Assembly (NCBI GenBank): GCA_013286575.1
Contig: JABDFL010000001.1
Span: forward strand, 9,905-73,904
Direction of reading: 5' to 3'
DNA: 64,000 nucleotides
Origin: Candidatus Omnitrophota bacterium
GTDB taxonomy: Bacteria; Omnitrophota; Gorgyraeia; Zapsychrales; Fredricksoniimonadaceae
The first letter of the stretch is position 1. Every line of letters starts with the position of its first letter. Under the pieces are notes generated by a model. The model was not told the origin of the DNA. It saw only the letters and a program-made list of their open reading frames with translations, and made no database searches. A program made the translations under genes and the position numbers. Shown here piece after piece: positions 29,656-63,453 of the stretch.

Positions 29656-32561
29656 TCTGGCGCGTTGAAGTTAAACAAAAAGATGGGATGCTGGATCCCA
29701 TTGGACAATCCATTGCCCGAGACATCATTGATATGGGCTTTGGCATCTCCCAGGTGCGTGTCGTCTCGGTTTTTCTGCTGGAAGGCACCATCAGCCGCGA
29801 GGAAGTCAAGCGCATCGGCGATGAACTCCTGGTTGATCCTATCGTTGAGCAATACAGTTTTGATTTAAAACTCCCCCTGCAGTCAGTTGACCATCATGTC
29901 GTTGAAATAGCTTATAATCCCGGTGTCATGGACCCTGTGGAAGCCTCCACGATCAAGGGCATCCGCGATTTGGGTGTCGCAGGCATCAGTGCTGTGCGCA
30001 CCGCCCGGCAATACCATATTTACGGCAGACTGACAGCCAAAGAATTGGAATCCATCACTGCCCGCGTCTTGATGAATAAACTCATCCAGCACGTGGTAGC
30101 TGACCCTTCCCATGTCCCGACCACACTCAGTATCACGGGTGCATCCGCGTCCAAATTTGATGTGATGATCGTGGATTTGATCGGTGCCAATGATAAAAAA
30201 CTTCTCGAAATTTCCAAGAGCGGCCAGCTCTATTTAAATATTGATGAGATGAAGGCCATCCAGGCCCATTTTAAAAAAGAAAAACGTGATCCGACGGACG
30301 TTGAATTAGAAACCATTGCCCAGACCTGGAGCGAGCATTGCCGCCATAAGACTTTCAGGGGTGTTATCCGTTACCGGGAAGGCAAAAGCGGACGGCCCCA
30401 AATTATCCGCAGCCTTTTTAAAACCACCATTGCTGCCGTTACGTTGAAATTAAAGAAAAAATGGTGCATTTCAGTTTTTCATGACAATGCCGGGGTCATC
30501 GCTTTTGATAAAGATTATCATGTGTGTTTTAAAGTGGAGACCCATAATCATCCCTCAGCCCTGGAGCCTTTTGGCGGGGCCAACACGGGAGTGGGTGGCG
30601 TTATCCGTGATACTTTGGGGACCGGGCTTGCTGCCAAGCCTTTGTGCAATACCGACATATTTTGTTTTGCGCCGCCGGACACACCGGCAGCAGACTTGCC
30701 GCCCGGCACCCTGCATCCCAAGCGGGTCATGAAAGGCGTTGTTTCAGGGGTGCGTGATTACGGCAACAAGATGGGCATCCCGACGGTCAATGGGGCCATT
30801 GTTTTTGATAAACATTTTGCAGGCAATCCGCTGGTTTTTTGCGGCAATATCGGGCTCATCCCCAAAGGTAAAGAAATTAAACGTGTCAGCAGGGGGGATT
30901 TGATCGTGGCTGTGGGCGGACGCACCGGGCGCGACGGCATTCACGGCGCCACGTTTTCTTCGGGAGAGCTGACCAGTGAATCGGAAACAGTTTCTTCAGG
31001 CGCCGTGCAGATCGGCAATCCCATTGAAGAGAAAAAAGTACAGGATGCCCTGCTTAAAGCGCGCGAGGCCAATTTGTATTCTGCCATCACTGATTGCGGC
31101 GCCGGCGGGTTTTCTTCTGCCGTCGGAGAAATGGGCGAAAAGACAGGGGCACGGGTTGATTTGGATAAGGCCCCTCTTAAATATCAGGGCCTTAAATACC
31201 ACGAGATTTGGATTTCAGAATCACAGGAGCGGATGGTGATGTCTGTCCCTCCTCAAAACATCGAAGCCCTTCTTAAGATTTTTGAGGCAGAGAATGTGGA
31301 GGCGAGTGTTTTAGGTGAATTCGACGGCTCCGGCCGCCTGCAACTGTTTTTCCACGGCCAGCAAGTTGCTGACATGGACATGTCCTTTCTCCATGATGGC
31401 CTGCCTCAAATAACCAAGGAAGCTGTTTATCAAAAGCCCAAACTCCGTGTCATTCCCGCGAAAGCAGGAATCCATACAAGATACCGCCCTGGACAGGATT
31501 TAACCGAAAGCTTATGCATGGCCTTAAGCCATTTTAATGTGGCTTCCAAGGAAAGTATTATTCGCATTTATGATCACGAGGTGCAGGGAACAAGCGTTGT
31601 CAAGCCACTGGTAGGGGTTGCCACCGACGGACCATCAGATGCGGCGGTGATCCGCGGGCGTTTGGATTCCAAGCGCGGCATCGCGGTTTCCAACGGCATT
31701 AATGTGCGCTACGGCATGATCGATCCTTTTGGGATGGCTGCTTCCTGCATTGATGAAGCGATCCGTCAAATCATCGCGGTGGGAGGTTCGCTGGATCGCA
31801 TCGCCCTTCTTGATAATTTTTGCTGGGGAAACCCTGATAAGCCCGATCGTCTGGGGTCTTTGGTGCGCTGTGCCCAAGGCTGTTATAAAGCGGCCGTGGC
31901 TTTCGGCACTCCGTTTATTTCGGGGAAAGATAGTTTATATAATGAGTATACCCAAAAAGGTAAAAGCCTCGCGATACCGGGGACCATATTGATCTCCGCC
32001 ATCGGCATCATCGATGATGTGGGAAAAAGCGTCACCATGGATTTTAAAAAGGCGGGGAACAGTATTTATGCGATCGGCACAACCTTTGACGAACTGGGCG
32101 GGTCTGTCTATTTGGAAAATTTAGGGCAGTTGGGGCTTCATGCACCGCAGGTCAATTTTAAGATGGCAGTTAAAACATATAAGGCTGTAGAACGCGCAAC
32201 CAAGGCGGGTTTGATCGCCTCGTTACACGATTGCTCGGAAGGCGGTGCCGCGGTCGCTCTGGCGGAAATGGCCTTTGCCGGCGGATTGGGCGCCACGGTT
32301 TTATCAAAGAAATTGCCCTATAAGGGAAAGCAGGGACGGGAAGATATTTTGCTTTTTTCGGAAAGCAATTCACGCTTCATTGCTGAAGTCTCAGCTGGTC
32401 ATGAAAAAGCGCTGGCAAAGATTTTCAAAGGCGTTCCCATGGCCCGGATCGGCACGGTTGAGGCAAGCCCGGAATTTGTCGTCTACGGTCTTCATGACCA
32501 GCCGGTCATCAATGCCCGTATCGATGAATTAAAAGAAATCTGGAAGGCACCGTTGAGATAA
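29652..32561 (+). CDS. purL: Phosphoribosylformylglycinamidine synthase subunit PurL with an N-terminal PurS-like extension (probable PurS-PurL fusion).
   Basis: 969 aa, against about 740 for a small PurL. The first ~80 aa resemble PurS (VEVKQKDGMLDPIGQSIARDI...). The PurL core starts near WSEHCRHKTF. No separate purS gene is seen between purC and purQ. Confidence 0.8.
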   Translation: MIWRVEVKQKDGMLDPIGQSIARDIIDMGFGISQVRVVSVFLLEGTISREEVKRIGDELLVDPIVEQYSFDLKLPLQSVDHHVVEIAYNPGVMDPVEASTIKGIRDLGVAGISAVRTARQYHIYGRLTAKELESITARVLMNKLIQHVVADPSHVPTTLSITGASASKFDVMIVDLIGANDKKLLEISKSGQLYLNIDEMKAIQAHFKKEKRDPTDVELETIAQTWSEHCRHKTFRGVIRYREGKSGRPQIIRSLFKTTIAAVTLKLKKKWCISVFHDNAGVIAFDKDYHVCFKVETHNHPSALEPFGGANTGVGGVIRDTLGTGLAAKPLCNTDIFCFAPPDTPAADLPPGTLHPKRVMKGVVSGVRDYGNKMGIPTVNGAIVFDKHFAGNPLVFCGNIGLIPKGKEIKRVSRGDLIVAVGGRTGRDGIHGATFSSGELTSESETVSSGAVQIGNPIEEKKVQDALLKAREANLYSAITDCGAGGFSSAVGEMGEKTGARVDLDKAPLKYQGLKYHEIWISESQERMVMSVPPQNIEALLKIFEAENVEASVLGEFDGSGRLQLFFHGQQVADMDMSFLHDGLPQITKEAVYQKPKLRVIPAKAGIHTRYRPGQDLTESLCMALSHFNVASKESIIRIYDHEVQGTSVVKPLVGVATDGPSDAAVIRGRLDSKRGIAVSNGINVRYGMIDPFGMAASCIDEAIRQIIAVGGSLDRIALLDNFCWGNPDKPDRLGSLVRCAQGCYKAAVAFGTPFISGKDSLYNEYTQKGKSLAIPGTILISAIGIIDDVGKSVTMDFKKAGNSIYAIGTTFDELGGSVYLENLGQLGLHAPQVNFKMAVKTYKAVERATKAGLIASLHDCSEGGAAVALAEMAFAGGLGATVLSKKLPYKGKQGREDILLFSESNSRFIAEVSAGHEKALAKIFKGVPMARIGTVEASPEFVVYGLHDQPVINARIDELKEIWKAPLR

Positions 32562-32570: not shown

Positions 32571-32600
32571 GTCATCCCCGAATGTTTCTGTCGGGGATCT
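32571..32600. repeat. Hairpin repeat family B (GTCATCCCCGAATGTTTCTGTCGGGGATCT).
   Basis: 8-bp stem TCCCCGA/TCGGGGA. A second copy is at 34147-34177. Confidence 0.6.
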
Positions 32601-34079: not shown

Positions 34080-34120
34080 GTGTCATTGCGAGGAGCCGGA
34101 GGCGACGAAGCAATCTTTTA
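34080..34120. repeat. Hairpin repeat family A (GTGTCATTGCGAGGAGC..GGCGACGAAGCAATCTTTT), copy 1.
   Basis: Begins 6 nt after the purQ stop. There are 5 copies in the window (34080, 34188, 43783, 61928, 63181). Confidence 0.7.
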
Positions 34121-34146
34121 ACACTGTCATTCCTTGGATTTTACAT

Positions 34147-34177
34147 TGTCATTCCCGAATGTTTTTGTCGGGAATCT
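34147..34177. repeat. Hairpin repeat family B copy (GTCATTCCCGAATGTTTTTGTCGGGAATCT).
   Basis: Stem ATTCCCGA/TCGGGAAT. Confidence 0.6.
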
Positions 34178-34187: not shown

Positions 34188-34228
34188 GTGTCATTGCGAG
34201 GAGCTGAAGGCGACGAAGCAATCTTTTT
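34188..34228. repeat. Hairpin repeat family A, copy 2.
   Basis: GTGTCATTGCGAGGAGCTGAAGGCGACGAAGCAATCTTTTT. Confidence 0.7.
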
Positions 34229-34233
34229 AGAAT

Positions 34234-34261
34234 CGTCATCCTGAGCGTAGCGAAGGATCTC
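34234..34261. repeat. Hairpin repeat family C (CGTCATCCTGAGCGTAGCGAAGGATCTC).
   Basis: Only one copy in the window. It shares the GTCAT head with families A and B. Confidence 0.5.
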
Positions 34262-34457: not shown

Positions 34458-34515
34458 CGAGTGATTGCAAGTTAGAAAAGGTCGTTACTTTTAATATCGA
34501 ATTAAGAGGTGCTGT

Positions 34516-42381: not shown

Positions 42382-43805
42382 TACCGTTGTTTATTTATTA
42401 TCCTCAACTCTCCCTGGTCCGCGACGCGCTTAAGGGCAGCAAGCGCCGTGTGTTCCTGGTCGGAGGCGCCTTGCGCGATTATTATTTAAACCGCCGCGGG
42501 ACTGATTTTGATTTCGCTGTTGACCAGGGGGCCGTTGCCTTGTCCCGCCGATTAGCCCATCAGCTTAAAGCTGCTTTTGTCCTGCTTGACCGCGAGCATG
42601 GCAGTGCCCGTGTCGTCAAAAAGATAGATGGGGTGGTCTGTACTTTTGATTTCACCGATTGGCGGGGCAGGAGCATTCAAAAAGATTTAAATTTGCGCGA
42701 TTTTACCATTAACGCGTTGGCCGTGGATATTTTTGATAAAGACGCTGGCATCCTGGAGGTCAAAGGGTCCCGGCGGGACCTAAAAGCAGGTGTGGTGCGC
42801 ATGGTTTCCCCCCAGGTCTTTAGAGACGATCCTTTAAGGCTTTTACGCGCCTTTACCCTGCAGGCCACCCTTGGTTTTAAGATGGATGCCGGGACAGGCG
42901 TGCAAATCAAAAAAGACGCGCATTTAATTTCCCTGTCAGCTGCGGAAAGGATACGCGAAGAGATTTTTAAGGTATTGGCTTCACCCCGTGCGGCCGCAAC
43001 ATTATCCGCTATGGATAAGATCGGGCTTTTGCCTCAGGTTATCCCGCAGATCACTGTCATGTACGGTGTCCATCAGGGCGGTTATCATCATTTGGATGTT
43101 TGGCGGCATACGCTTGAAGTGCTTGCAAAGGTTGAAAAATTCATCGAAGAGCCGGGCGCTGATGAGCGCATGAAGGCGTATTGGCACCAGCCTATCGGCG
43201 GAGGGCACACGCGCTATGCGCTTTTGAAAATGGCCGCGCTTTTGCATGACGTAGGAAAACCGGAAACCCGGAAGCTTGAGGCGAAGCGCATGACTTTTCA
43301 CGGCCATGAGCATGCGGGCGAAAGGATAACCCGTCAGGTCGCCAAGCATTTGAAATTATCCGTTAAGGAACGTTTTTTTCTGGAAGATGCGGTAAGGATG
43401 CACCTGAGGCCGGGCTATCTGTCAAATTTCAAACGCCCCAGTGAAAAAGCGATATTCCGGTATCTGCGCGACACGAAAGATGAAGCCGTCAGTTTGGCAG
43501 TTCTGGGTCTGGCAGACCAGGCCGCGACATGCGGCCCCTTGACCACCAAAGCCAAGCATAGGCATCATGCTAAAATCTGCCACATGCTCATCGAACGTTA
43601 TTTTGAACTCAAAGACCGGAAGCCCCGGCAACGCCTGCTCACAGGCCATGATTTGATCAAGGTCCTGAAATTAAAACCTTCAGAGCTGTTTGGAAAAATC
43701 CTCTCCGGCATCGAAGAAGCCGCAGCTTTGGGTAAAATAAAAACAAAAGCCGAGGCACTGAATTTGGCTCGACAAATGAATGTGTCATTGCGAGGAACGA
43801 AGTGA
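42378..43805 (+). CDS. cca: tRNA nucleotidyltransferase (CCA-adding enzyme / poly(A) polymerase family) with an HD domain.
   Basis: 475 aa: FLVGGALRDYYLNRRGTDFDFAV. HD motif HDVGK. Its last 8 codons and stop lie inside a family-A repeat. Confidence 0.8.
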   Translation: MIPLFIYYPQLSLVRDALKGSKRRVFLVGGALRDYYLNRRGTDFDFAVDQGAVALSRRLAHQLKAAFVLLDREHGSARVVKKIDGVVCTFDFTDWRGRSIQKDLNLRDFTINALAVDIFDKDAGILEVKGSRRDLKAGVVRMVSPQVFRDDPLRLLRAFTLQATLGFKMDAGTGVQIKKDAHLISLSAAERIREEIFKVLASPRAAATLSAMDKIGLLPQVIPQITVMYGVHQGGYHHLDVWRHTLEVLAKVEKFIEEPGADERMKAYWHQPIGGGHTRYALLKMAALLHDVGKPETRKLEAKRMTFHGHEHAGERITRQVAKHLKLSVKERFFLEDAVRMHLRPGYLSNFKRPSEKAIFRYLRDTKDEAVSLAVLGLADQAATCGPLTTKAKHRHHAKICHMLIERYFELKDRKPRQRLLTGHDLIKVLKLKPSELFGKILSGIEEAAALGKIKTKAEALNLARQMNVSLRGTK

Positions 43806-43821
43806 CGAAGCAATCTTTTTA
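43783..43821. repeat. Hairpin repeat family A, copy 3, spanning the cca stop and the ygfZ-like start.
   Basis: GTGTCATTGCGAGGAACGAAGTGACGAAGCAATCTTTTT supplies the cca C-terminus ...SLRGTK* and the GTG start plus MTKQSF of the next gene. Confidence 0.7.
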
Positions 43822-44443
43822 CAGGCTCCCCGACACCGTTTTTAGCATTAAAGGCAATGCTTCTCAATTCTTAAATGGGATCACTTCCAATACATTGGAC
43901 GCATTGCTCAATGCCTTTTTAAACCAGCATGGCCGCATCATCGCCACCTTTCGCCAGCAAAAAATCAGCGACGATGAATTCCTGATCAGTGTGCCTGTCA
44001 TCGCCGTGGATAATCTATTAAAACACCTGGATCGTTATGCCCGGCTGAGCCACACCCGGATAGAGCAGTCCACTCAGGGTTCTTATATGGATTTGGACAC
44101 CGCCAAAACCGTATGGTCATCACAGCCCCAGACTAACAGTATCAGCGATGAGGAGTTTACACTTTTTCGTCTTGACCATAATATCCCGTTGATGGGTGTT
44201 GATTATCAGGCCGATGAATTTATACTCAACGTGCATGAGTTTGATTATGTTTCTTATACCAAAGGCTGTTTTTTAGGCCAGGAGCCTGTGGCCAAGGTGC
44301 ATAACCGCGCCCAACCCGTTCGCCGTCTGATCACCCAATTTGCCGATCAATGCTCCCCGGAAGATGCCGCCAAAATGACTTCCAAGATCCAGGACCCCGC
44401 AACCGGCCGTCTAAAAGGCTTTGTATTTGTAAGCAATAAATGA
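43802..44443 (+). CDS. Folate-binding YgfZ/GcvT-like protein.
   Basis: 213 aa. KGCFLGQE matches the YgfZ K-G-C-(Y/F)-x-G-Q-E signature. The GTG start is provided by the repeat. Confidence 0.65.
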   Translation: MTKQSFYRLPDTVFSIKGNASQFLNGITSNTLDALLNAFLNQHGRIIATFRQQKISDDEFLISVPVIAVDNLLKHLDRYARLSHTRIEQSTQGSYMDLDTAKTVWSSQPQTNSISDEEFTLFRLDHNIPLMGVDYQADEFILNVHEFDYVSYTKGCFLGQEPVAKVHNRAQPVRRLITQFADQCSPEDAAKMTSKIQDPATGRLKGFVFVSNK

Positions 44444-53297: not shown

Positions 53298-53411
53298 AAA
53301 TTTTTATGGCATTTTGGCGGATTTTTGGTAAATTGTAGGCTTAATTCTTTATATAGATACTTTGGGAAGCTATGTAATTATTTTGAAACTAATGTTTATT
53401 AAACCTGAAAT

Positions 53412-54428
53412 ATGAGTAAAATAATAGGGATTACATATGATTTAAAGGGCGATTGGCAGGGGGCTTCGGATGACCCTGTTGACGCGGCGGCTGAGCTCGA
53501 CGGGCATAAGACGATCGAATGCCTTAAAGCTGCCCTGGAATCGGCCGGGCATAAGGTGGTTTTAATCGGCGGTGCGCGCCAATTGATCAGCCGCGTGACG
53601 GGCGGAGATTTAAAGGTCGATATTGTCTTTAATATTTCCGAAGGCTTTAAAGGCCGCAACCGCGAATCCCAGGTGCCTGCTATTTTGGATTTATACAATA
53701 TTCCTTTTGTCGGTGCTGATGCGTTGACCTTAGGCGTTACTTTAGATAAGGTAGTGGCTAAAAAATGTTTCATCGCTGAAGGGATACCGACAGCACGTTA
53801 TTTTAAGGCCACGCTTGAAGATAATTTGTTTGCATTGAACACGATCGGTTTTCCTTTGTTCGTCAAGACCCTGCACGAGGGCACGTCCAAAGGGATCACC
53901 CAGGCATCAAGGGTCGCGGATTTTGAACAGCTTAAGGCCCAGGTTGAGCATATCAACCGTAATTATAAGCAGCCGGCGCTGGTCGAGGAGTTTATTAAGG
54001 GCACTGAGTTTACCGTCGGCGTTATCGGTAATAATCCGCCGGTCGCCATGCCGGTGGTGCAGTATGCGATTGCGGGCAAGACGGCTTTAGGCAATGAATT
54101 TTATTCGTACCGCCACGTGGCTGAAAAGCTGGTGGAGCATATTTGCCCGGCGCCTATTGATGAGAAATTAGCGAAGAACCTTCAAGAATTAGCGGTGCGC
54201 GCATACAAATCTGTTGATTGCCGTGATTTCGGGCGTGTGGATTTTCGCGTGGATGAAGCGGGCAAGCCTTATGTCCTGGAAATCAACCCGTTGCCGAATT
54301 TAAGTCCGGACGATGTGTTCGTTCTCTTTGGTAAAGTTTTAAAGATGTCGTACAATCAGATCATTAATAAAATCATGGATGAAGCCCTCTTGCGTTTGGG
54401 GCTTATGGAAGGAAGTTTGCAAAAATGA
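53412..54428 (+). CDS. ATP-grasp ligase of the D-alanine--D-alanine ligase family.
   Basis: 338 aa: HKVVLIGGA, ILDLYNIPFVGADALTLGVTLDKVVAKK, FVKTLHEGTSKGI, RVDFRVDEAGKPYVLEINPLP. Confidence 0.7.
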   Translation: MSKIIGITYDLKGDWQGASDDPVDAAAELDGHKTIECLKAALESAGHKVVLIGGARQLISRVTGGDLKVDIVFNISEGFKGRNRESQVPAILDLYNIPFVGADALTLGVTLDKVVAKKCFIAEGIPTARYFKATLEDNLFALNTIGFPLFVKTLHEGTSKGITQASRVADFEQLKAQVEHINRNYKQPALVEEFIKGTEFTVGVIGNNPPVAMPVVQYAIAGKTALGNEFYSYRHVAEKLVEHICPAPIDEKLAKNLQELAVRAYKSVDCRDFGRVDFRVDEAGKPYVLEINPLPNLSPDDVFVLFGKVLKMSYNQIINKIMDEALLRLGLMEGSLQK

Positions 54429-55612
54429 GCCCTGTGACCACAGTGATCAAAGAAGAGACAGCCTCATCTTCCGGCGGGCCCAACATTCCGTTGTCACCTG
54501 CGGAACAACGCGTCATCAAACTTTTTCCGGGCGCGACATTAGCGGATTGGGAAGATTGGCGCTGGCAGATCAGAAACCGTATCCGCACGCTTGACCAGAT
54601 CACCAAGCTGATGAAACTGACCCCGCACGAAGAGCGCGGGGTCAAAGGGGCAGGGGACAAACTGACCATGTCCATCCCGCCGTATTTTGCCGCCTTGATC
54701 GATGAGAATGATCCCGGATGCCCTATCCGTTTGCAATCAGTCCCGTTGGATTATGAATTTGAGACGACCCCTGAAGAAATGCTCGACCCTTGCGGTGAAG
54801 ACAAGAATTCCGCCGTGCATGGCCTGGTGCACCGCTATCCTGACCGCGTGCTTTTTTTAGTCAATGAGATGTGTGCCATGTACTGCCGTTATTGCACGCG
54901 CTCACGCATGGTGGGTGACGGCAACCACACGCTTAATACCTCCACCTATGACGCGGCGCTCAATTATATCCGTGAGCATAAAGAGATCCGCGATGTGCTG
55001 ATTTCCGGCGGGGACCCTTTGACCCTGGGCGACCGTATGCTGGAATATTTGATTTCTTCCGTCAAAGCCATCCCGCATGTGGAATTTGTGCGTATCGGCA
55101 CACGCATCCCCGTGACCCTGCCCCAGCGGATCACGCCGGAGCTGATCGCCATGTTTAAGAAATATTCGCCCCTTTGGATGAGCGTTCATTTTAACCATGC
55201 CAGGGAAGTGACCCCGCGCGTCAAGCATGCCTGCAACATGCTCGCTGATGCCGGCATTCCCATGGGCAGCCAGACGGTGCTCTTGCGCGGCGTTAATGAT
55301 TCGCCGGAAGTCATGAAAAAACTTTTCCATGAACTTTTGAAGATCAGGGTCAGGCCTTATTACATTTATCAATGTGACCCCATCGTCGGCTCCAGGCATT
55401 TTCGCACCAGTGTTGAGACGGGTATTAATATCATCCAGAACCTGCGGGGGCATACCACCGGCTACGCGGTGCCGACCTATGTGATCGACGGGCCCGGCGG
55501 CGGCGGTAAAATCCCCGTTAATCCGGATTATTTGGTTTCCAAAGAAAATGGCCGTTATACGTTGCGTAATTACGCGGGAGAATTATATACCTACGTCGAC
55601 CCAACCTATTAA
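54425..55612 (+). CDS. Lysine 2,3-aminomutase family radical SAM enzyme (KamA/EpmB-like).
   Basis: 395 aa: CAMYCRYCTRS cluster motif, ISGGDPL, and a KamA-like C-terminal region. Its start overlaps the ATP-grasp stop by 4 nt. Confidence 0.8.
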   Translation: MSPVTTVIKEETASSSGGPNIPLSPAEQRVIKLFPGATLADWEDWRWQIRNRIRTLDQITKLMKLTPHEERGVKGAGDKLTMSIPPYFAALIDENDPGCPIRLQSVPLDYEFETTPEEMLDPCGEDKNSAVHGLVHRYPDRVLFLVNEMCAMYCRYCTRSRMVGDGNHTLNTSTYDAALNYIREHKEIRDVLISGGDPLTLGDRMLEYLISSVKAIPHVEFVRIGTRIPVTLPQRITPELIAMFKKYSPLWMSVHFNHAREVTPRVKHACNMLADAGIPMGSQTVLLRGVNDSPEVMKKLFHELLKIRVRPYYIYQCDPIVGSRHFRTSVETGINIIQNLRGHTTGYAVPTYVIDGPGGGGKIPVNPDYLVSKENGRYTLRNYAGELYTYVDPTY

Positions 55613-55675
55613 AATGCACGATCGGATGACGTCTGTCCCTAAAAATGGCCAGGAATCCCTTTTGGGAATTAATCA

Positions 55676-58561
55676 TTGGGGAGAAATATCGTGAACGGAC
55701 ATCCGTTTAAAGCCTCTATTTTTGTTTTTTTTATGTGTCTGGCAATTCTCACGGGTGGTATTAAGTCCTTTGCCCAAGACGATAATTCTGATGAGAATAC
55801 CCAGGAGACATTAAACCAGATCCATGATTTGGAAGTAAAGTTACAGCAAGCCAATAAGTCGCTGGATGCAGCCCAACAGTCTGGGAATCAATCGGATACA
55901 GAAACAGCAGTTACACAGGCCCCTGTAGCACAAGCATCCCCTCAACAAGCAGCTCCTGAGCAGGCAGACGACTCTGCGCCGTCTTCTTCAGACCAGACTA
56001 CTTCGACTTCTCCGGCCCAAACAGCGCCGGATAGGACCGTATCCATTAACACAACTTTAAATTCGCTCGAGGTAAACTCAGCTCAAACTGCGTCCACTAC
56101 TTCGGTTCCAACTACTACGCCCACCCCGACACAGACTGTTCCGTCTGCTCCAGTACAAACTGTTCCGCCTGCTCCGGCTTCTTCAAACCAAACTGCCTCA
56201 TCTACCGGCAATACTCTAAAAATCAGCGGGGAAGTGCGTGCTTCCATGGGAGTTTACTCTAGCGGAAATGCGGTGTTTACCCGGGCCAACGCGGACCTTA
56301 ATGAAAAGAATTACCGGTTGGTATCGGATAATGCTTTAAACAATGACATCAATACCTATGACCCTGCTCTCTATTCCCGTTTGAAGGTCGTGATGGATGC
56401 ATCTGTCGCATCTGCGGTGGTATCTGTGCACTTGAATGTGAGCGTGGACCCATGGAGTTTTACGGGAAAAACCAAGACCCAGCTAGTCACCACCCCATAC
56501 GGAGATACCGTTAAGGTCCAATATTTGACTTGGGGAAATACGGGGTATACTGTTAACTCTACTTTTAATACCATGAGGTTTGCTAATGGGATTGAAGTGC
56601 CTGAAATAAAAACAAACGGTAATATGGTGCCGGCGACAACAGTACCTAATGTTGACACGTATTATCAAGACGGCGACACATTCAATCTCCCTGCCGCGAA
56701 AATAGACTATTCTTTTTTTCCTTTTAGGGAAGCGTGGGTCGATGTCAAACCTACCGATGAATTAAAGTTACGCATTTTTCCGATGGGCTTTGAAGACCAG
56801 GCTTTAAGTACGGACGACCCTTTAAAACTTTCCAATAGCACAGAGTGGTGGGCGGAAAGCCCATGGCTTGATGGCTGGCAGCAGGGTAATCTTAACACCG
56901 GGCTCACACCGGTGAGTTTTACAAAAGGTCAATGGGACAAGAGTTTGTCGTTCTTTACTAAGGACAGCGACGGGGTGCGTTTGACCGCCTTGCGCGGTGT
57001 TTCCCTGGATTGGAAGCCGGGGGATGAGACATCTTGGGATACCACCATCGCCAGCCCCAAAACCCTTTGGCAGGATTACGGGGACATTACGGCCCTGGCC
57101 GGGAGCTCGCGGTTAAAGCAGGATATCGGCGATTCTTTTTATATAGGCGCCTTGGGGAACATGCACCAGGGTTTTGACTTAGACAATCAGATAGATGCTG
57201 AAAATTATACCGGCGGTGTTGATTCCGGGGCCATGCTCCTTAAAAACCTGAAACTCAATGCTGAATACGCTGAATCCAAAAGCATCTATGATGAAACTTC
57301 CCCTGAGTATTCCACTCAATATGGCGGCAATGCCTACTTTGTATCGCTCACCACCGCTTCCAACCCTGAGGATGAGGACATCCTCAAGAAAGATTATTTC
57401 GGCTTGCTGCCTGTCGAGAAAACAGAGGATTTTTATAAGAGTACGATTTATTTTGCCAGGATGGATGAAGGCTTCGAGTCGAGCCTGTCTGATTATCACG
57501 AAACCCGCAGCGATAGTTTCTGGGCGGATAACCTGACTTTTTATCCTTCGGATTACCGTTATATGCCGGGCATCGGCCCCACCCTGTCCGAAAATGATCT
57601 GGATCCTTTTGCCATCGGTAACGGCATTGATTACGGGCGTTCGGTCATCAACTGGCGGGGAGATGTGAATTTGATGGACGGGAAACTTCAAGGGCTTGCG
57701 GCCATACGGCATGTCACGGACCATAATGGCAATAATGTGGAAACCGCCTCCCGCCTTGGAATGACATATCAGGTCACGGATAAACTTACCACCAAGGCCC
57801 TATTATTATGGGACGCCTTGCCTAATACAACGGCAGGGATAGATCCTTTTCAGGTGTATGATCCGACTGGCGTAAACTATAATAATGACGCGGTCCCGGG
57901 CGGAAAAGACCCCAGCTTGAAAACCGGCTCTTTGGGCGCCCGTTATCAGTTGACTGATTGGGCCGCCATTAATGGTGTCTGGAAATATACCAATGATTTT
58001 GTCGAAGGCACCAATGAATTCCCGCAAACGGTCATGGATAGTATTAGTACCGCGCCGAGTTTTCAAAATGGCCAGAATTACCGCCAGTATTTCCCCTTTA
58101 TATATGATCAGAGCTACTTTGAGCAGGCACCCTATCCCTATTATAATATTTTTAAAACAGGCTTGGAGTTGACCCCCAGCGAAAAATGGCATCTTTATCT
58201 GGACTATACCCGTAACCCCAACAGGTTCGCCGGGAATTTCGACGACAATATGAACCACGAAGGCATTGAAGCCAGTTATGTGCCGACCCCCAAGATAGGT
58301 TTTTTCGCGAGCACTGTATTTTCCCAGGGTTATGATGTCAACCGTTTAGTCAATGATAATGAGCTGGATTATCGGGACTATATTAATTTCTTTTTTGAAA
58401 TGCGCATGATCCTGCCCAAAGACCTGATGATGTCAATCCAGTACGGTGTGGGCCCATCCTACGATATCCAAACTTCCACCACCACTCCTAACCTGACATA
58501 TTCTTCCACTGTCCTTGAAACCCAGCACCTTGTCCGCATCGTCTTTGATAAGAAGTTCTAG
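55676..58561 (+). CDS. Large outer-membrane-type protein (961 aa) with a signal peptide, a long T/S/P/Q/A-rich linker and a probable C-terminal beta-barrel.
   Basis: ORF track start is the TTG at 55676. A GTG at 55691 preceded by GGGGAGA is the more likely start. The low-complexity region spans residues ~60-190. It ends with an aromatic-rich ...VFDKKF typical of OMP barrels. Confidence 0.55.
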   Translation: MGRNIVNGHPFKASIFVFFMCLAILTGGIKSFAQDDNSDENTQETLNQIHDLEVKLQQANKSLDAAQQSGNQSDTETAVTQAPVAQASPQQAAPEQADDSAPSSSDQTTSTSPAQTAPDRTVSINTTLNSLEVNSAQTASTTSVPTTTPTPTQTVPSAPVQTVPPAPASSNQTASSTGNTLKISGEVRASMGVYSSGNAVFTRANADLNEKNYRLVSDNALNNDINTYDPALYSRLKVVMDASVASAVVSVHLNVSVDPWSFTGKTKTQLVTTPYGDTVKVQYLTWGNTGYTVNSTFNTMRFANGIEVPEIKTNGNMVPATTVPNVDTYYQDGDTFNLPAAKIDYSFFPFREAWVDVKPTDELKLRIFPMGFEDQALSTDDPLKLSNSTEWWAESPWLDGWQQGNLNTGLTPVSFTKGQWDKSLSFFTKDSDGVRLTALRGVSLDWKPGDETSWDTTIASPKTLWQDYGDITALAGSSRLKQDIGDSFYIGALGNMHQGFDLDNQIDAENYTGGVDSGAMLLKNLKLNAEYAESKSIYDETSPEYSTQYGGNAYFVSLTTASNPEDEDILKKDYFGLLPVEKTEDFYKSTIYFARMDEGFESSLSDYHETRSDSFWADNLTFYPSDYRYMPGIGPTLSENDLDPFAIGNGIDYGRSVINWRGDVNLMDGKLQGLAAIRHVTDHNGNNVETASRLGMTYQVTDKLTTKALLLWDALPNTTAGIDPFQVYDPTGVNYNNDAVPGGKDPSLKTGSLGARYQLTDWAAINGVWKYTNDFVEGTNEFPQTVMDSISTAPSFQNGQNYRQYFPFIYDQSYFEQAPYPYYNIFKTGLELTPSEKWHLYLDYTRNPNRFAGNFDDNMNHEGIEASYVPTPKIGFFASTVFSQGYDVNRLVNDNELDYRDYINFFFEMRMILPKDLMMSIQYGVGPSYDIQTSTTTPNLTYSSTVLETQHLVRIVFDKKF

Positions 58562-58562
58562 T

Positions 58563-58590
58563 TTGACAATAACCAAACATATACTATAAT
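58563..58590 (+). promoter_or_regulatory. Sigma70-like promoter: TTGACA, 16 bp, TATAAT, upstream of rpsU.
   Basis: Immediately after the OMP gene stop, about 50 nt upstream of the rpsU ATG. Confidence 0.45.
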
Positions 58591-58638
58591 ACAACCCTTC
58601 AAACCAATATAACCAGTACTAAGGAGCAGTGATCCATA

Positions 58639-58800
58639 ATGTTAGAAGTTAAAGTCAATGACAAGAACAGTTTCGAGAAAGCAATGCGCTTATTCAAGAA
58701 GCAGTGCCAAAAAGACGGTTTTTTAGTCGAACTTAAAGAACGCCGTTTTTACTGCAAGCCTTCCGAACGCAAACGTAAAAAAGGCACCGGCAAGAGATAA
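58639..58800 (+). CDS. rpsU: 30S ribosomal protein S21.
   Basis: 53-aa ORF absent from the track: MLEVKVNDKNSFEKAMRLFKKQCQKDGFLVELKERRFYCKPSERKRKKG, which matches the S21 pattern. AAGGAG lies 12 nt upstream. Confidence 0.8.
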   Translation: MLEVKVNDKNSFEKAMRLFKKQCQKDGFLVELKERRFYCKPSERKRKKGTGKR

Positions 58801-58873
58801 ATTGTTTTTAGTTTCTCCTTTAGGATGACAGGGGTACTTAAAGACACCGCCAAGGGTGTCTTCTTTAATTATT

Positions 58874-60433
58874 ATGATTAAAGTCAAACGCGCATTAATT
58901 TCCGTTTCCGACAAGACCGGTTTGGTGGATTTTGCCAAAGGCTTGGCCAAGCTGGGTGTTGAGATCATCTCCACCGGCGGCACGGCGGCGCTTCTGCGGT
59001 CCGCTGATCTTAAGATCCGGGAAGTTTCTGAATATACCGGTTTCCCTGAAATGCTTGACGGCCGCGTCAAGACCCTGCACCCCAAGATCCACGGCGGCCT
59101 TCTGGCAGTACGCGATAATCCCGAGCACATGAAGCAAATCAAAGCCCACGATATCGGCCTTATTGATATGGTGGTGGTGAATCTTTATCCCTTCGAAAAA
59201 ACGATCCAGAAAAAGAATATATCCCTGGAAGATGCCATCGAGAACATCGATATCGGCGGGCCTTCCATGCTGCGTTCAGCTGCCAAGAATTATAAAAGTG
59301 TGGCGGTGATATGCAATGCTGACCGTTATGCGGAAGTTTTGCAGGAACTCAACAATAACGGCGGCATTTTATCAGATAAGGTGCTGACCAACCTGGCCAT
59401 TGAAGTTTTCGAGCGCACCTGCCGCTATGATGCGGCCATTTACGGGTTTCTCAATAATCGCTTTAAGGCAGACAATTCTTTTTCTTCTTTCCCTAAAGAT
59501 TTTACTTTTTCTTTCAGTAAATTGCAGGACCTGCGTTATGGTGAAAATCCGCACCAGGCCGCGGCTTTTTATAAGGACAGCGCCCAGCTTGATGGTTTGA
59601 GCAAACTTCAGCAATTGCAGGGTAAGGAGCTGTCTTTTAACAATATCCTTGATTTGAACGCGGCAGTGGATATCGTCCGCGAATTCGACGCTCCGGCCGC
59701 GGTCATTATCAAACATAATAATCCCTGCGGCGTCGCCCAGGACAAGACGCTTGATAAAGCATACCTCAAAGCCTACAAATGTGATTCACTTTCTGCTTTC
59801 GGGGGCATCATCGGTTTTAACCGCCCTGTTGACGCAAAAACCGCTGCGGCCGTCATCAAAAGCGGTTTTATGGAATGCATCATTGCCCCTGAATTTGGCG
59901 AGGAGGCCAAGAAGCTTTTTTCAGCCAAAAAGAATTTGCGTTTGCTGGTCTTGGATGTCTACGGCATCAATCAGGAGCGCTATGATTTCAAGAAAGTCTC
60001 CGGCGGGCTTTTGCTGCAGGAGAAGGACAACCGCGTTCTTAAAGCGGAAGAATTAAAAATAGTCAGCAAAGTCAAACCTACCAAATCACAGATGGATGCC
60101 ATGATCTTTGGCTGGAAATTGATCAAGCATGTCAAAAGCAATGCCATTGTCCTGATCAAGGGCACACAGACCATTGGTATCGGCGGCGGCCAAACCAGCC
60201 GCGTGGATTCCGCGATCCATGCCATCCATCGGGCAGGAAAGGCAGCCAAGGGGAGTGTTCTAATATCCGACGCGTTTTTGCCTAAGCCTGATACTGTCAC
60301 TATTGCCGCCAAGGCCGGGGTCAAGGCCATTATCCAGACCGGTGGTTCCATCATGGATGAGGCCGTGATCAAAGAAGCTGATAAAAAAAAGATAGCCATG
60401 GTTTTTACCGCCATCCGCCACTTTAAACATTGA
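58874..60433 (+). CDS. purH: Bifunctional AICAR transformylase / IMP cyclohydrolase.
   Basis: ATG at 58874 (MIKVKRALISVSDKTGLVDF matches the PurH N-terminus). GGGQTSRVDS and the AICARFT domain are present. Confidence 0.9.
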   Translation: MIKVKRALISVSDKTGLVDFAKGLAKLGVEIISTGGTAALLRSADLKIREVSEYTGFPEMLDGRVKTLHPKIHGGLLAVRDNPEHMKQIKAHDIGLIDMVVVNLYPFEKTIQKKNISLEDAIENIDIGGPSMLRSAAKNYKSVAVICNADRYAEVLQELNNNGGILSDKVLTNLAIEVFERTCRYDAAIYGFLNNRFKADNSFSSFPKDFTFSFSKLQDLRYGENPHQAAAFYKDSAQLDGLSKLQQLQGKELSFNNILDLNAAVDIVREFDAPAAVIIKHNNPCGVAQDKTLDKAYLKAYKCDSLSAFGGIIGFNRPVDAKTAAAVIKSGFMECIIAPEFGEEAKKLFSAKKNLRLLVLDVYGINQERYDFKKVSGGLLLQEKDNRVLKAEELKIVSKVKPTKSQMDAMIFGWKLIKHVKSNAIVLIKGTQTIGIGGGQTSRVDSAIHAIHRAGKAAKGSVLISDAFLPKPDTVTIAAKAGVKAIIQTGGSIMDEAVIKEADKKKIAMVFTAIRHFKH

Positions 60434-61713
60434 ATGCCCTCACTTATCTAAACTCCTTTGTTAATTTTGAATCCCAGCTCCATAAACTGGGCCCTGAAGA
60501 TTTTAGCCTCAACCGCATTGAAAAGTTTTTGGATTTGGCCGGAAACCCGGCCAAGAATTTAAAGATCATCCATGTCGCAGGCACTAAGGGCAAGGGATCA
60601 ACCTGTGCGTTTTTAGCCGGTATTTTGCAGGAGGCCGGCTACAAGGTAGGGTTATATACCTCGCCGCACTTGCACAAGGTCAATGAACGTATCCGTATTT
60701 TAAATGCGGAGAATATCCGCTCCAAAGATGATTTTTGCGGCTCAATCAGCGACGATGAATTAGCTTCGGTGCTGGCCCAAATACGCCCTTTTGCCGCTGC
60801 CATCCAGAATGAGGGTAATATCCTTACCTATTTCGAAGTCCTGACAGTGGCGGCCTTGTGTTATTTTGCCAGGGCATGCGTGGACGTGGTCATTTTAGAA
60901 ACCGGTTTGGGCGGCCGTCTGGATGCGACCAATGCGGTTGATTCCTTAATTGCTGTGATCACACCGGTCAGTCTGGACCATGTCCGTATACTAGGCAATA
61001 CTTTAGGTAAAATAGCGGCAGAGAAGGCGGGCATTATAAAAGATTCCCGCCAGCAGGCCGTGATTGCTCCTCAAGAAAAAGAAGCCATGGATATTTTACT
61101 TCAACGTTGCCGGGAGTTTGGTGTCCATCCGGTCCTGGTCAATTTGGAAAAGTATAAAAATTTGAAAATCGGCCTTAAGGGCACGCATCAAAAGATCAAT
61201 GCCGCGACCGGCCTGGAAACGGTGGGGATTTTAAAGAAAATGGGGTTTCACATCAGTGATAAAGCGATCAGTGACGGATTAATTAATGTCCGTTGGCCCG
61301 GCCGTTTTGAATTATTGCATCAGGCGCCGGATGTGATCGTTGATTGCGCGCATAATGAAGCTTCTGCCCGGGCCTTGGCCCAGACCTTGAAGGGGGAATA
61401 TCATCAGCGACGGGTGATTTTAGTGCTGGGAGTCTCCCAAGACAAAGACGTGAAGGCCATTTGTTATTCTTTAAAGAATAGTGTAGCGCATATTATCCTG
61501 ACCAGGGCCGGCCATCCCCGGGCCCACTCTTTTAAGGAAGCAGAAGGTAAGGACTATTTTGGGGGGAAATCTTTTGAGATCATGGAAAGCCTGCCTCAAG
61601 CGCTGGAAAAGGCCCTGCAGCAGGCAGGCCCGCAAGATGTGATTTTAGTAACAGGTTCTGTTTTCGTAGTGGCAGAAGCAACGGAGTTCTTATGTACCAA
61701 TATAAAGGCCTAG
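60430..61713 (+). CDS. folC: Folylpolyglutamate synthase / dihydrofolate synthase.
   Basis: 427 aa: HVAGTKGKGST, ILETGLGGRLDATN. Confidence 0.8.
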   Translation: MNALTYLNSFVNFESQLHKLGPEDFSLNRIEKFLDLAGNPAKNLKIIHVAGTKGKGSTCAFLAGILQEAGYKVGLYTSPHLHKVNERIRILNAENIRSKDDFCGSISDDELASVLAQIRPFAAAIQNEGNILTYFEVLTVAALCYFARACVDVVILETGLGGRLDATNAVDSLIAVITPVSLDHVRILGNTLGKIAAEKAGIIKDSRQQAVIAPQEKEAMDILLQRCREFGVHPVLVNLEKYKNLKIGLKGTHQKINAATGLETVGILKKMGFHISDKAISDGLINVRWPGRFELLHQAPDVIVDCAHNEASARALAQTLKGEYHQRRVILVLGVSQDKDVKAICYSLKNSVAHIILTRAGHPRAHSFKEAEGKDYFGGKSFEIMESLPQALEKALQQAGPQDVILVTGSVFVVAEATEFLCTNIKA

Positions 61714-63176
61714 AAGACACGATTGCCGCCATTGCGACTCCTGCCGGACAAGGCGGGATCGGCATTGTGCGTATCAGCGGTAAGGATGCGATTACGGTCG
61801 CGGATGCGGTGCTTCGTCTTCAAGGGGACAAATCATTAGCGCAGTGCAAGAGCCATACGGTCCATTATGCCCGTGTCATTAGTCCCAATAGTGTCAAAAG
61901 GCCCAATAGCATCGACGTCGCAGAGTTGTGTCATTGCGAGGAGCGTTTTCCAGCGACGAAGCAATCTTTTTTGAAAAATGAAAATATCATTGATGAAGTT
62001 TTAGTAACATTGATGAAAGCACCAAAAAGTTACACCGCCGAAGACGTGGTCGAAATCAATTGCCACGGCGGCATGACTGTCCTGCGTGCGGTGCTTGAAG
62101 AAGTCTTGTCCGCAGGAGCGCGCCCGGCAACTCCGGGAGAATTCACCAAACGGGCCTTTCTTCATGGCCGTATGGATTTGGCCCAGGCCGAGGCAGTGAT
62201 TGATATCATCCAGGCACGGACTTCAAACTTTTTACGCCAGAGCCAGCATCAATTAAAAGGGGAATTATCGATCCAGCTTAATGCCATACGCGCAGAGTTG
62301 ATCAAGCTTTATACGATGGTAGAGGCATTGATTAATTTTCCCGAGGATGGCATTGACGCCCAAGGCCGTCAGCAAATTTTAGACCGCATCAGTATTCAAG
62401 AGAAGGGTATCGCTAAACTGTTGAAATCCTCCGAGAGCGGCCGTATCCTTAAAGAAGGCATACGCATCGTCTTATGCGGCAAGCCCAATGTAGGCAAATC
62501 TTCTTTACTGAACGCTCTTCTCAAAGAACAGCGCGCCATTGTCACCAATATCGCCGGCACCACCCGCGATGTCCTGGAAGAATCAGCGCAAATCAAAGGC
62601 ATTCCCATTTCATTAGTCGACACCGCCGGTATTTTGGAACCAAGGGATCTCATTGAAAAGGAAGCCATATCACGCAGCCATCTTTACATCAAAGGCGCTG
62701 ATCTGGTATTTTTGGTGCTGGACCATAGTCACCCGTTAGAAGAGCAGGACAGGCTGCTGATGCAGCAATTAAAAACCGCCAGGGTTTTGGTCGTAGTTAA
62801 TAAAATAGATTTAGAGGGCAAGATAGACCTGTCAGTGCCCAAAGGAATATTCGGCCCGGAGCATGTGATAGAAGTTTCAGCGCTTGAACCTCAATCCATG
62901 CAGGGCCTGGAAGCAAAGATCGTTGATTTGATCCTCAAGGACAAAGATCTCGATACCCACGGCATTCTGGTCAGCAATGTCCGTCATGTTAAGGCATTGG
63001 AAGAAGCGCAAAGAAACCTGCAAGACGCCGTCCGCCTGATGGACCAAAACACTTCCCTGGAATTTATCTCCGAAGAACTAAAAAGCGCCGTCAACCAGTT
63101 GGACGCCATCACCGGCCGCAACATCGACGAAGACCTCCTGGACCGCATCTTTTCCGAATTCTGTATTGGAAAATAA
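61692..63176 (+). CDS. mnmE: tRNA modification GTPase MnmE (TrmE), with a repeat-derived in-frame insertion in its N-terminal domain.
   Basis: 494 aa: IAAIATPAGQGGIGIVRISG, G-domain GKPNVGKSSLLN, DTAG, NKID, C-terminal CIGK. The N-terminal domain carries an extra segment (...ELCHCEERFPATKQSFL...) encoded by a family-A repeat. Confidence 0.85.
   Translation: MYQYKGLEDTIAAIATPAGQGGIGIVRISGKDAITVADAVLRLQGDKSLAQCKSHTVHYARVISPNSVKRPNSIDVAELCHCEERFPATKQSFLKNENIIDEVLVTLMKAPKSYTAEDVVEINCHGGMTVLRAVLEEVLSAGARPATPGEFTKRAFLHGRMDLAQAEAVIDIIQARTSNFLRQSQHQLKGELSIQLNAIRAELIKLYTMVEALINFPEDGIDAQGRQQILDRISIQEKGIAKLLKSSESGRILKEGIRIVLCGKPNVGKSSLLNALLKEQRAIVTNIAGTTRDVLEESAQIKGIPISLVDTAGILEPRDLIEKEAISRSHLYIKGADLVFLVLDHSHPLEEQDRLLMQQLKTARVLVVVNKIDLEGKIDLSVPKGIFGPEHVIEVSALEPQSMQGLEAKIVDLILKDKDLDTHGILVSNVRHVKALEEAQRNLQDAVRLMDQNTSLEFISEELKSAVNQLDAITGRNIDEDLLDRIFSEFCIGK
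61928..61972. repeat. Hairpin repeat family A, copy 4, in-frame inside mnmE.
   Basis: GTGTCATTGCGAGGAGCGTTTTCCAGCGACGAAGCAATCTTTTTT translates as (E)LCHCEERFPATKQSFL. Confidence 0.7.
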
Positions 63177-63180
63177 GTGT

Positions 63181-63223
63181 GTGTCATTGCGAGGAGGCGT
63201 AGCCGACGAAGCAATCTTTTTAC
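63181..63223. repeat. Hairpin repeat family A, copy 5 (GTGTCATTGCGAGGAGGCGTAGCCGACGAAGCAATCTTTTTAC), just after the mnmE stop.
   Basis: Same head and tail as the other copies; the central segment is variable. Confidence 0.7.
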
Positions 63224-63257
63224 GCTCCACGCCATCTAGGGCTGACGCTGATATATT

Positions 63258-63286
63258 TTGACAACCTCACTCAATGCGAGTAGACT
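63258..63286 (+). promoter_or_regulatory. Candidate sigma70 promoter: TTGACA, 17 bp, TAGACT. It would give a ~160-nt structured leader ahead of the radical SAM gene.
   Basis: The predicted leader contains the hairpins CCCCGAAC-gttta-GTTCGGGG (63332-63352) and GCCGCACC-gcag-GGTGCGGC (63376-63396). Confidence 0.35.
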
Positions 63287-63453
63287 TGCGTTTATTCGGG
63301 TGTTGTGTTTTCTTCGAAGGTAGTAGAAGGCGGTCCCCGAACGTTTAGTTCGGGGAAAAGCAGCCTGGTGACTAGCGATGCCGCACCGCAGGGTGCGGCG
63401 AGCGTGCCTGAGAAGAAAATACAATGCCTGAATATATGCGTGAGTAGGTGAGT

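Follow-up and report, generated by a model that had tools for sequence, protein, structure and literature searches.

We report that an in-frame copy of a widespread hairpin repeat sits in MnmE, the tRNA modification GTPase (MnmE/TrmE), of a Candidatus Omnitrophota bacterium (assembly GCA_013286575.1). The gene occupies 61692..63176 (+) of a 64,000-nt stretch of contig JABDFL010000001.1 (positions 9,905 to 73,904), which we analysed at its full length and call the window. The repeat, here named family A, covers 45 nt of the gene (61928..61972, +) and constitutes a derived, repeat-derived addition of 15 residues to a loop that tolerates it, in an MnmE that is intact otherwise. In other genomes, repeats of the same type are linked to cassettes encoding small GIY-YIG proteins.

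The repeat copy inside mnmE

The 494-aa open reading frame (ORF) of the host gene is intact. It matches all three MnmE domains of Pfam well over cut-off (TrmE_N, PF10396, 6.5e-41; MnmE_helical, PF12631, 2.7e-52; MMR_HSR1, PF01926, 1.2e-26), displaying the three-domain MnmE/TrmE architecture with its inserted Ras-like G domain. Its best PDB matches are MnmE/TrmE chains aligned over the full length (1xzp, 3gee, 3geh, 9hip; down to E=9e-98). Both the FC(V/I/L)GK and the G motifs, as defined for MnmE in PMC12397908, are present, the former as the C-terminus ...SEFCIGK and the latter (G1, G3 and G4) as GKPNVGKSS, DTAG and NKID. In a 56-sequence alignment, all invariant MnmE columns (G motifs, FCIGK) are kept in the query.

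The 45-nt copy reads GTGTCATTGCGAGGAGCGTTTTCCAGCGACGAAGCAATCTTTTTT. Its core at 61930-61966 consists of GTCATTGCGAGGAGC-GTTTTCCA-GCGACGAAGCAATC and is followed by a tail of six T. The repeat runs from the third base of codon 79 to the second base of codon 94, encoding (L)CHCEERFPATKQSF(L), and its translation, LCHCEERFPATKQSF, is embedded without interruption in ...VAELCHCEERFPATKQSFLKNEN..., within the wider stretch ...HYARVISPNSVKRPNSIDVAELCHCEERFPATKQSFLKNENIIDEVLVTLM... An earlier first-pass annotation, made from the letters of this DNA alone, had placed a family-A repeat in frame inside MnmE's N-terminal domain, and every element of that statement (position, ORF, translation, identity by Pfam and PDB) has been borne out.

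The repeat is recurrent in the window far beyond chance. The 16-mer GTCATTGCGAGGAGCG, with at most two mismatches allowed, occurs five times, compared with 0.02 occurrences expected from shuffled sequences, and the 3' half CGACGAAGCAATC also occurs five times (0.08 expected). The five family-A copies start at 34080, 34188, 43782, 61928 and 63181, all on the + strand, and share the consensus GTGTCATTGCGAGGAGC - 3 to 8 variable bases - GCGACGAAGCAATCTTTTTA. Both arms of the mnmE copy equal this consensus, the match covering 17 + 20 nt of the 45-nt element, and its 8-nt loop GTTTTCCA is found in that copy only among the five compared.

The insertion is absent from relatives

Querying 5.8 billion proteins yielded, apart from the query itself, the 119 best MnmE homologues, several of which are labelled Candidatus Omnitrophica or Omnitrophota by their sources. 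The closest relatives are 76-80% identical, and most measure 463-470 aa, compared with 494 aa of the query. The segment CHCEE...TKQSF is absent from all 119, including the 76-80% identical ones. Alleles lacking the insert, which the first-pass annotation had advised looking for, are therefore found in every one of these homologues, and its concern that orthologues might carry the same segment did not materialize. In DNA alignments of the window with the loci of two relatives, L001 (protein P0003) and L003 (protein P0002), a clean gap faces the repeat. Taken together, the family match of both arms, the absence of the segment from relatives and the preserved frame and motifs uphold the view that a repeat has been absorbed in frame into a conserved gene. 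From these alignments, the insertion into mnmE appears to postdate the split from the nearest sequenced relatives.

The comparison with P0003 (479 aa, 80% identity) also clarifies the size of the insert. Directly before the repeat, the query contains a loop extension, S64-E78 (SPNSVKRPNSIDVAE, 61881..61925, +), which is not repeat-derived. P0003 has a homologous extension, KSKEIKRPYSFDSVKDED (also given as KSKEIKRPYSFDSV), corresponding to SPNSVKRPNSIDVAE...KNEN of the query, and the DNA of the window and of L001 share AAAAGGCCC.AT..C.TCGAC there. Most other relatives lack the extension, so that it represents an older, lineage-specific feature. The query exceeds P0003 by 494 - 479 = 15 aa, that is 45 nt. 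Given this length excess and the shared extension, the segment of about 35 extra residues described in the first-pass annotation is composite: some 32-35 residues (query 64-95) indeed fail to align with solved MnmE sequences, which match query 7-65 and 96-494, but only about 15-17 of them stem from the repeat and about 15 belong to the older extension.

An assembly error had also been raised as a possibility. The independent Logan assembly of run SRR8422330 (L004) corresponds to window positions 51692-63387, and over these 11,696 nt there is no mismatch and no gap; the stretch of 100% identity passes through both the in-gene family-A copy and the copy downstream of mnmE. This identity, the collinearity of the frame in both flanks and the unique loop GTTTTCCA make misassembly very unlikely.

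Position in the protein and preservation of the frame

In an AlphaFold2 model of the query MnmE, built on 56 homologues, two strands, 56-63 and 99-108, are modelled with confidence (pLDDT about 90), whereas residues 67-95, which join them, have pLDDT below 50. The insert is thus predicted to be disordered and to lie where a beta-hairpin of the N-terminal domain turns, in agreement with the surface loop on which the first-pass annotation had proposed to place it. The length of this turn differs by 0 to about 35 residues among relatives, so that its tolerance of insertions has been shown by nature itself. The site falls just ahead of residue 57 of E. coli MnmE and outside the MnmE-MnmG contact elements named in a cryo-EM study (M1-D5, R107-N119 and Q125-R142; PMC12397908). 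The 15 extra residues most probably make up a disordered loop on the surface that contributes nothing to the enzyme. The repeat peptide is likely a neutral passenger in a modified MnmE that probably works and would be fully active.

Several properties explain how an insertion could survive in an essential gene. The copy is 45 nt long and hence divisible by three, which also holds for the 42-nt version with a 5-nt loop. The GTCAT strand of the consensus is open in all three frames (VSLRGAKRRSNLF, CHCEERSDEAIFL and VIARSEATKQSF), whereas of the frames of its reverse strand one is closed by TAA and another by TGA. In the frame used by mnmE, the consensus tail (TTTTTA, then G; seen in copy 34188) would give TCT TTT TAG; in the mnmE copy, TTTTTT precedes the G and the reading is TCT TTT TTG, which avoids the stop. 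The landing site, finally, is a turn of naturally variable length. We infer that selection filtered copies for these frame properties.

Family A, a repeat type linked with GIY-YIG genes in other genomes

The other four family-A copies lie at or near gene ends or in intergenic DNA. One (63181..63225, +) is situated 5 nt past the mnmE stop codon in the same orientation as the in-gene copy, and the two bracket the 3' 1.2 kb of mnmE. Another (34080..34121, +) follows the stop codon of a purQ-like (GATase_5) gene by 6 nt. The copy at 34188..34229 (+) is likewise intergenic and has the 5' flank AGTT; positions 34184-34204 and 61924-61944, including this flank, are 100% identical over 21 nt (family D6). 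The fifth copy (43782..43823, +) is located at a gene junction. One ORF there (42378-43805), for a CCA-adding/PolyA_pol+HD enzyme, takes its final ~8 codons (VSLRGTK) and its TGA stop from the repeat; the GTG start listed for the other, a GCV_T-like (YgfZ-type) ORF (43802-44443), is overlapped by the copy.

The repeat has 5-bp outer arms, ATTGC/GCAAT, and a GA-rich, two-tier interior (GA/GAA, G-C, GA/GA, inner stem). From copy to copy, both sides of the inner stem vary (GC/GC, GT/AC, AT/AT, GCC/GGC, GGC/GCC, GCGC/GCGC). A simple end-in stem test of the repeat interiors gave a weak signal; this test is ill-suited to a GA-interrupted structure. At gathering threshold, Rfam recognizes only two tRNAs elsewhere in the window, and near the repeat the best match is RAGATH-27 at chance level (E=7). 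A consensus terminator scan did not flag the repeat, with its hairpin and T-run, as an intrinsic terminator.

An exact-pattern scan for GTCATTGCGAGGAGC N3-9 GACGAAGCAATC in one genome per bacterial species revealed at least 134 copies of the family-A core (27 specified bases) in at least 120 loci (L005-L124) from many phyla. Hosts among the matches listed comprise Bradyrhizobium and many other Alphaproteobacteria, Anaerolineae, Chloroflexus, Desulfobacteraceae, Patescibacteria, Armatimonadota, Bacteroidota, Verrucomicrobiota, Fibrobacterota, Nitrospirota, Spirochaetota and Omnitrophica. In the same matches the boundaries are sharp (GTCAT ... AATC, then C or T) and variation is confined to the centre. 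From this distribution, family A is evidently pan-bacterial and not private to this genome or lineage. In Alphaproteobacteria the core often occurs as inverted pairs, and family-A repeats are the source of such familiar spurious peptides as RHCEERSDEAIQ, GLLRFARNDG and DCFASLAMT. A literature search with the strings GTCATTGCGAG, FASLAMT and IPAFAGMT gave only unrelated primer matches, and one for palindromic repeats in Omnitrophota found nothing relevant.

The repeat resembles a recently defined class. NTS of Neisseria and Ssn-related motifs (SRM) are oriented hairpins of single-stranded DNA (ssDNA), bound and cut by small single-domain GIY-YIG nucleases named Ssn; the bases directly upstream of the palindrome (GTC) and the C directly after it are critical (Chenal et al. 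2025, Nat Commun, PMC11893778). According to the same authors, SRMs typically stand on both sides of ssn genes (single-domain GIY-YIG, cd10448), an arrangement NTS-ssnA-NTS that resembles an insertion sequence, such pairs occur across phyla, and binding and one-strand ssDNA cleavage by the cognate Ssn were assayed for the Neisseria and Wolbachia pairs (PMC11893778). Mobility of SRMs is only hypothesised there (PMC11893778).

Only one of the 120 loci listed has a GIY-YIG gene within 8 kb of the core. This locus, L124 from a Campylobacteraceae metagenome-assembled genome, encodes a 96-aa single-domain GIY-YIG protein (PF01541, E=4e-17) with family-A-type hairpins on both sides. With this protein as query, we collected 80 metagenomic loci encoding relatives of 58-73% identity, GIY-YIG being assigned by Pfam. 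Hairpins of the form GTCATTGC...GCAATC are present in 77 of the 80, and the ATTGC type accounts for 249 of the 269 GTCAT-type hairpins at these loci. A GTCAT-type hairpin of any arm type stands less than 500 nt away on both sides of the gene in 62 loci. Up to 150 nt upstream, 70 hairpins lie on the strand of the gene and 16 on the opposite one; up to 150 nt downstream, 67 lie on the opposite strand and 27 on that of the gene. Median gaps between hairpin and gene are 29 nt upstream and 13 nt downstream. The density of hairpins beside the gene amounts to ~7.5 per kb, compared with 0.16 per kb past 500 nt, which is a ~47-fold enrichment. The long form seen in mnmE is represented by 77 copies.

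Such placement, strand bias and density show family A to be the hairpin that terminates a GIY-YIG cassette in inverted copies. The layout agrees with the published NTS-ssnA-NTS architecture and with the critical GTC and C positions (PMC11893778), and the oriented SRM ends HGTCWY / RNCYNB (PMC11893778) are found as TGTCAT...GCAATCTTT in all five copies of the window. On these sequence grounds, an orphan SRM with an "ATTGC" subtype is the best description of the mnmE copy. This genome presumably has a cognate Ssn, and Ssn or its cassette presumably mobilises the repeat. The identity of the selfish intergenic repeat named in the first-pass annotation can now be refined to a pan-bacterial motif linked to GIY-YIG (Ssn-type) genes.

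Repeats in the same loops of other genomes

Insertion of hairpin repeats into coding sequence is seen beyond this one gene. In the window itself, an NTS/dRS3-like hairpin, GTCATTCCCGCGAAAGCAGGAATC (31449..31472, +), lies in frame in the PurSL (FGAM synthase) ORF (29652-32561), where it is read as VIPAKAGIH in an interdomain linker. It is absent from the closest PurL homologues, P0121 (90%) and P0122 (86%). Another PurL homologue (P0225, JGI) contains at residues ~50-80, in this very linker, ...MSFPSLPMSFPRKRESS... / ...PSLPMSFPSLPMSFPRKRESSLNQALCQALSHY... Here an NTS-like repeat is used in a second reading frame, which suggests an independent strike.

MnmE shows a comparable picture. In another Omnitrophota genome (GCA_015233165.1, JADFYF010000088.1; L002), a ~76-nt inverted pair of hairpins of a second family, B, is inserted in frame at positions 737-812, in the same MnmE turn. 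The protein, P0084, has 60% identity to the query; the DNA, GTCACCCCCGAATGTTTTAATCGGGGGTC ... GATTCCCGACAAAAGCACTCGGGAATGAC, is translated as SPPNVLIGGPG...DSGFPTKALGNDK, and the pair is composed of ATTCCCGA/TCGGGAAT-type hairpins. Extra residues in this turn are also present in P0090 (483 aa, with a repeat-like loop peptide) and in P0083 and P0086 (475 aa each). Just past the mnmE stop codon, L003 has an NTS-like hairpin (4423-4446), the window a family-A hairpin (63183-63216) and L001 no repeat, a pattern that indicates repeated turnover of hairpins at this gene end.

We also counted copies inside ORFs over the 120 listed family-A loci by naive ORF spanning. Such a count is uninformative because high-GC genomes yield long spurious ORFs, and the only credible case comes from the low-GC Candidatus Omnitrophica CG22_combo (PCTH01000009.1; L042). 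Here a family-A copy (947-978) in a PfkB/fructokinase-like gene (690-1664, -) is read as SLRGAKRRSNL directly before the GAGD motif. Since the region is only ~4 residues longer than in solved fructokinases, this case may be a replacement instead of a pure insertion.

These cases allow a broader reading, that SRM hairpins are mobile and repeatedly colonise coding sequence of Omnitrophota, different families having independently entered the same MnmE turn and the same PurL linker. As the GTCAT strand is free of stops in three frames, copies landing in tolerant loops would be kept as peptide. We regard this generalization as tentative and rather doubtful.

Other hairpin repeats and structured elements

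Further hairpins of the window belong to related families. A family-B hairpin, GTCATCCCCGAATGTTTCTGTCGGGGATC (32571..32599, +), begins 10 nt past the PurSL stop codon (repeat comparison D7). Another, GTCATTCCCGAATGTTTTTGTCGGGAATC (34148..34176, +), lies in an intergenic repeat cluster together with a hairpin of family C, GTCATCCTGAGCGTAGCGAAGGATC (34235..34259, +). The families represented by GTCATTCCCGAATGTTTTTGTCGGGAATC, GTCATCCTGAGCGTAGCGAAGGATC and GTCATTCCCGCGAAAGCAGGAATC share their ends with family A, and GTCATTCCCGCGAAAGCAGGAATC is nearly identical to the Neisseria NTS CGTCATTCCCGCGMAVGCGGGAATCYRG, which includes dRS3. All nine convincing SRM-like copies (31449, 32571, 34082, 34148, 34190, 34235, 43784, 61930 and 63183) have their GTCAT strand on the + strand. 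This strand is the coding strand for nearly all genes of the window, is G-rich and has positive GC skew throughout; the one-strand copies fit a replication- or transcription-strand bias, the two being inseparable in this sample.

The cluster after purQ is followed by a near-perfect long hairpin of 187 nt (34276-34462, +; RNA minimum free energy -84 kcal/mol, z = -12). Its ~130-nt core is 87% identical to positions 4481-4611 of L003, downstream of mnmE, while the outer arms differ. It looks like another mobile structured element. It belongs to no Rfam family and has only chance-level microRNA matches. Elsewhere, a 121-nt tandem direct repeat (81% identity, 126-nt spacing) is found at 2439-2685 (+) inside ORF 1744-4668 (974 aa). 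Finally, the intergenic region 63290-63420, between the downstream family-A copy and a radical-SAM-like gene (start ~63455), shows more inverted symmetry, including two hairpins, of which one (GGTCCCCGAACGTTTAGTTCGGGGAA) is degenerate and family-B-like and the other (GCCGCACCGCAGGGTGCGGC) GC-rich.

Proposed origin of the insertion and alternatives

We consider it highly probable that the mnmE copy is a derived insertion of a solo SRM, tolerated in the loop. A solo oriented hairpin (GTCAT-arm-loop-arm-ATC, 'ATTGC' type) would have inserted into mnmE after the split from the nearest sequenced relatives. Its class would be that of SRMs, founded on Neisseria NTS/dRS3, which elsewhere form the inverted termini of small GIY-YIG ssn genes and also occur as orphan copies. 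The copy plausibly arrived by whatever process disperses SRMs, a question that Chenal et al. leave open too, and it could plausibly remain a potential Ssn site on the coding strand.

Several observations weigh against this explanation. The nearest allele with an empty site shares no more than ~80% protein identity, so that the event is not datable and its boundaries are uncertain by a few bases. Inspection of the flanks of all five copies found neither a target-site duplication nor another footprint of transposition. No GIY-YIG/ssn gene is present in the 64-kb window, so that a cognate nuclease in this genome is putative. The published SRM pattern, HGTCWYN(0-2)YYVSBRHN(0-5)WNVSBRGN(0-2)RNCYNB, searched as a regular expression on both strands, has no match in the window and none in L124. 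It misses even the NTS-like copies of the window; it models ATTCCCGCG-type arms and loops of at most 5 nt, whereas family A has greater length and an interior rich in GA. SRMs should be semi-palindromes of 20-50 nt with the ability to fold into an ssDNA hairpin; for family A, nearest-neighbour energies are -1.9 kcal/mol as DNA and -12 kcal/mol as RNA, no better than shuffles, and the hairpin therefore rests on the arm symmetry, the conserved GA-rich interior and the variation of the inner stem.

The missing target-site duplication, together with the absence of a transposase or ssn gene nearby, would be explained if the segment had been copied by local recombination, gene conversion or template-switching from a neighbour, for example the same-strand family-A copy 1.25 kb away, the repeat itself not being mobile; mobility of SRMs is, after all, merely hypothesised in PMC11893778. 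The flanks of the in-gene copy, however, are closest to the distant copy at 34184-34232 and not to the adjacent one, the mnmE loop has no evident homology to the repeat flanks that could act as primer, and spread over many unrelated sites and phyla requires some dispersal mechanism in any case. We hold local copying to be unlikely. Exaptation, in which the DNA or RNA hairpin or the CHCEE...TKQSF loop has become functional, is in our estimate also quite improbable. Candidate functions are an Ssn cleavage site limiting replacement of mnmE by incoming ssDNA (as with Neisseria NTS-gene-NTS), a transcription attenuator and a new interaction loop. The two same-orientation copies bracketing the 3' 1.2 kb of mnmE do resemble NTS-flanked genes (PMC11893778), both arms of the in-gene copy are undecayed, and another lineage holds different repeats in the same loop. 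Recurrence at one loop, though, is predicted equally by tolerance alone; the peptide is predicted to be disordered and is confined to one lineage, the terminator scan leaves the repeat unflagged, and the window contains no ssn gene.

An assembly or binning artefact, with the 45 nt brought in by a mis-join at a repeated k-mer, might be suggested by the source, a metagenome-assembled genome, and by the fact that short repeats break de Bruijn assemblies. We deem it very improbable here: both flanks are collinear with orthologues in one mnmE frame, unlike a chimera, the loop GTTTTCCA is unique to the mnmE copy, and the Logan assembly of SRR8422330 is identical over 11.7 kb through both copies. That the segment is an ordinary ancestral or convergent loop merely resembling the repeat might be suggested by the hypervariability of the turn and the unrelated extra residues of several relatives. 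This is effectively refuted by a match along both arms (17 + 20 nt) continued into non-coding-style flanks (AGTT..., ...CTTTTT), with 0.02 such matches expected per window, and by the lack of the segment in the 119 best homologues.

Significance and relation to known systems

Peptides such as CHCEERSDEAI, SLRGAKRRSNL, VIARSEATKQS and VIPAKAGIH in conserved Omnitrophota proteins should be taken as translated hairpin repeats and not as lineage-specific functional motifs. They are probably present in other uncultured phyla too, and will confuse alignments, structure prediction and length statistics of orthologues. Although the present case alone reveals no new mechanism, it joins the recently defined Ssn/SRM system to a literature so far separate. 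By comparing filled with empty sites in essential genes, one could ask if SRMs move, in what orientation they do so and which targets they prefer, and the recurrently struck MnmE and PurL loops could serve as natural maps of insertion tolerance. Were SRMs indeed mobile, filled/empty pairs would provide the first comparative evidence for transposition of Ssn-associated repeats, which Chenal et al. only hypothesised, and SRM peptides would have gone unnoticed as a general origin of loop insertions among proteins from uncultured phyla.

Among known systems, SRM/NTS are the closest. Like them, family A is by its sequence an oriented semi-palindrome of 25-45 nt with (C/T)GTCAT as its beginning and ATC(C/T) as its end, has hundreds of orphan copies near gene ends, is present across phyla and, in other genomes, encloses a single-domain GIY-YIG gene of ~95 aa between terminal copies in inverted orientation; the window also contains near-canonical NTS-like copies (GTCATTCCCGCGAAAGCAGGAATC). 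It differs in its arms, ATTGC/GCAAT versus ATTCCCGC/GCGGGAAT of NTS, and in its GA-rich two-tier interior; it fails the published degenerate pattern, and the window is without an ssn gene. Intragenic or in-frame copies in housekeeping genes are not mentioned by Chenal et al. (PMC11893778).

REP/BIME elements and their RAYT enzymes (IS200/IS605-like) provide a parallel in architecture: short oriented hairpins with a conserved 5' tag, clusters after stop codons, multi-family mosaics (as at 34080-34260 of the window) and a small gene for an ssDNA-hairpin nuclease flanked by inverted copies. The tag, however, is GTCAT in family A and GTAG in REPs, the enzyme is GIY-YIG instead of HUH/Y1, and REPs are classically extragenic. 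Intragenic MITEs that form in-frame fusions (transposable elements of the miniature inverted-repeat type; ERIC, BOX, Anabaena MITEs, Correia elements) are likewise small, non-autonomous repeats found in ORFs with the frame unbroken (PMC10969869); family A is much shorter, lacks terminal inverted repeats besides its hairpin arms and shows no target-site duplication at its five copies in the window.

In function the case corresponds to Rickettsia palindromic elements (RPE), described in a review of MITEs (PMC10969869, summarising Ogata et al. 2000, Science, and 2002) as selfish palindromes translated in frame in unrelated housekeeping genes. As with RPE, a palindromic repeat is found in frame at fold-compatible sites and recurs within one genome, here in mnmE and purL. 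According to that summary, RPE span ~100-150 bp, encode a conserved peptide of ~30-50 aa and are confined to Rickettsia, an obligate intracellular alphaproteobacterium, whereas the family-A element has 45 nt or 15 aa (core 32-37 nt), a pan-bacterial core and an Omnitrophota host that is free-living or epibiotic. We treat it as an analogue and not as a member of RPE; by its defining features it belongs to none of RPE, MITE and REP/RAYT. Selfish DNA turned into protein sequence is thus of an already known, RPE-like kind and not unprecedented. What is new here are the specifics: the SRM subtype, the probable Ssn-cassette origin and the recurrent strikes on the same MnmE and PurL loops.

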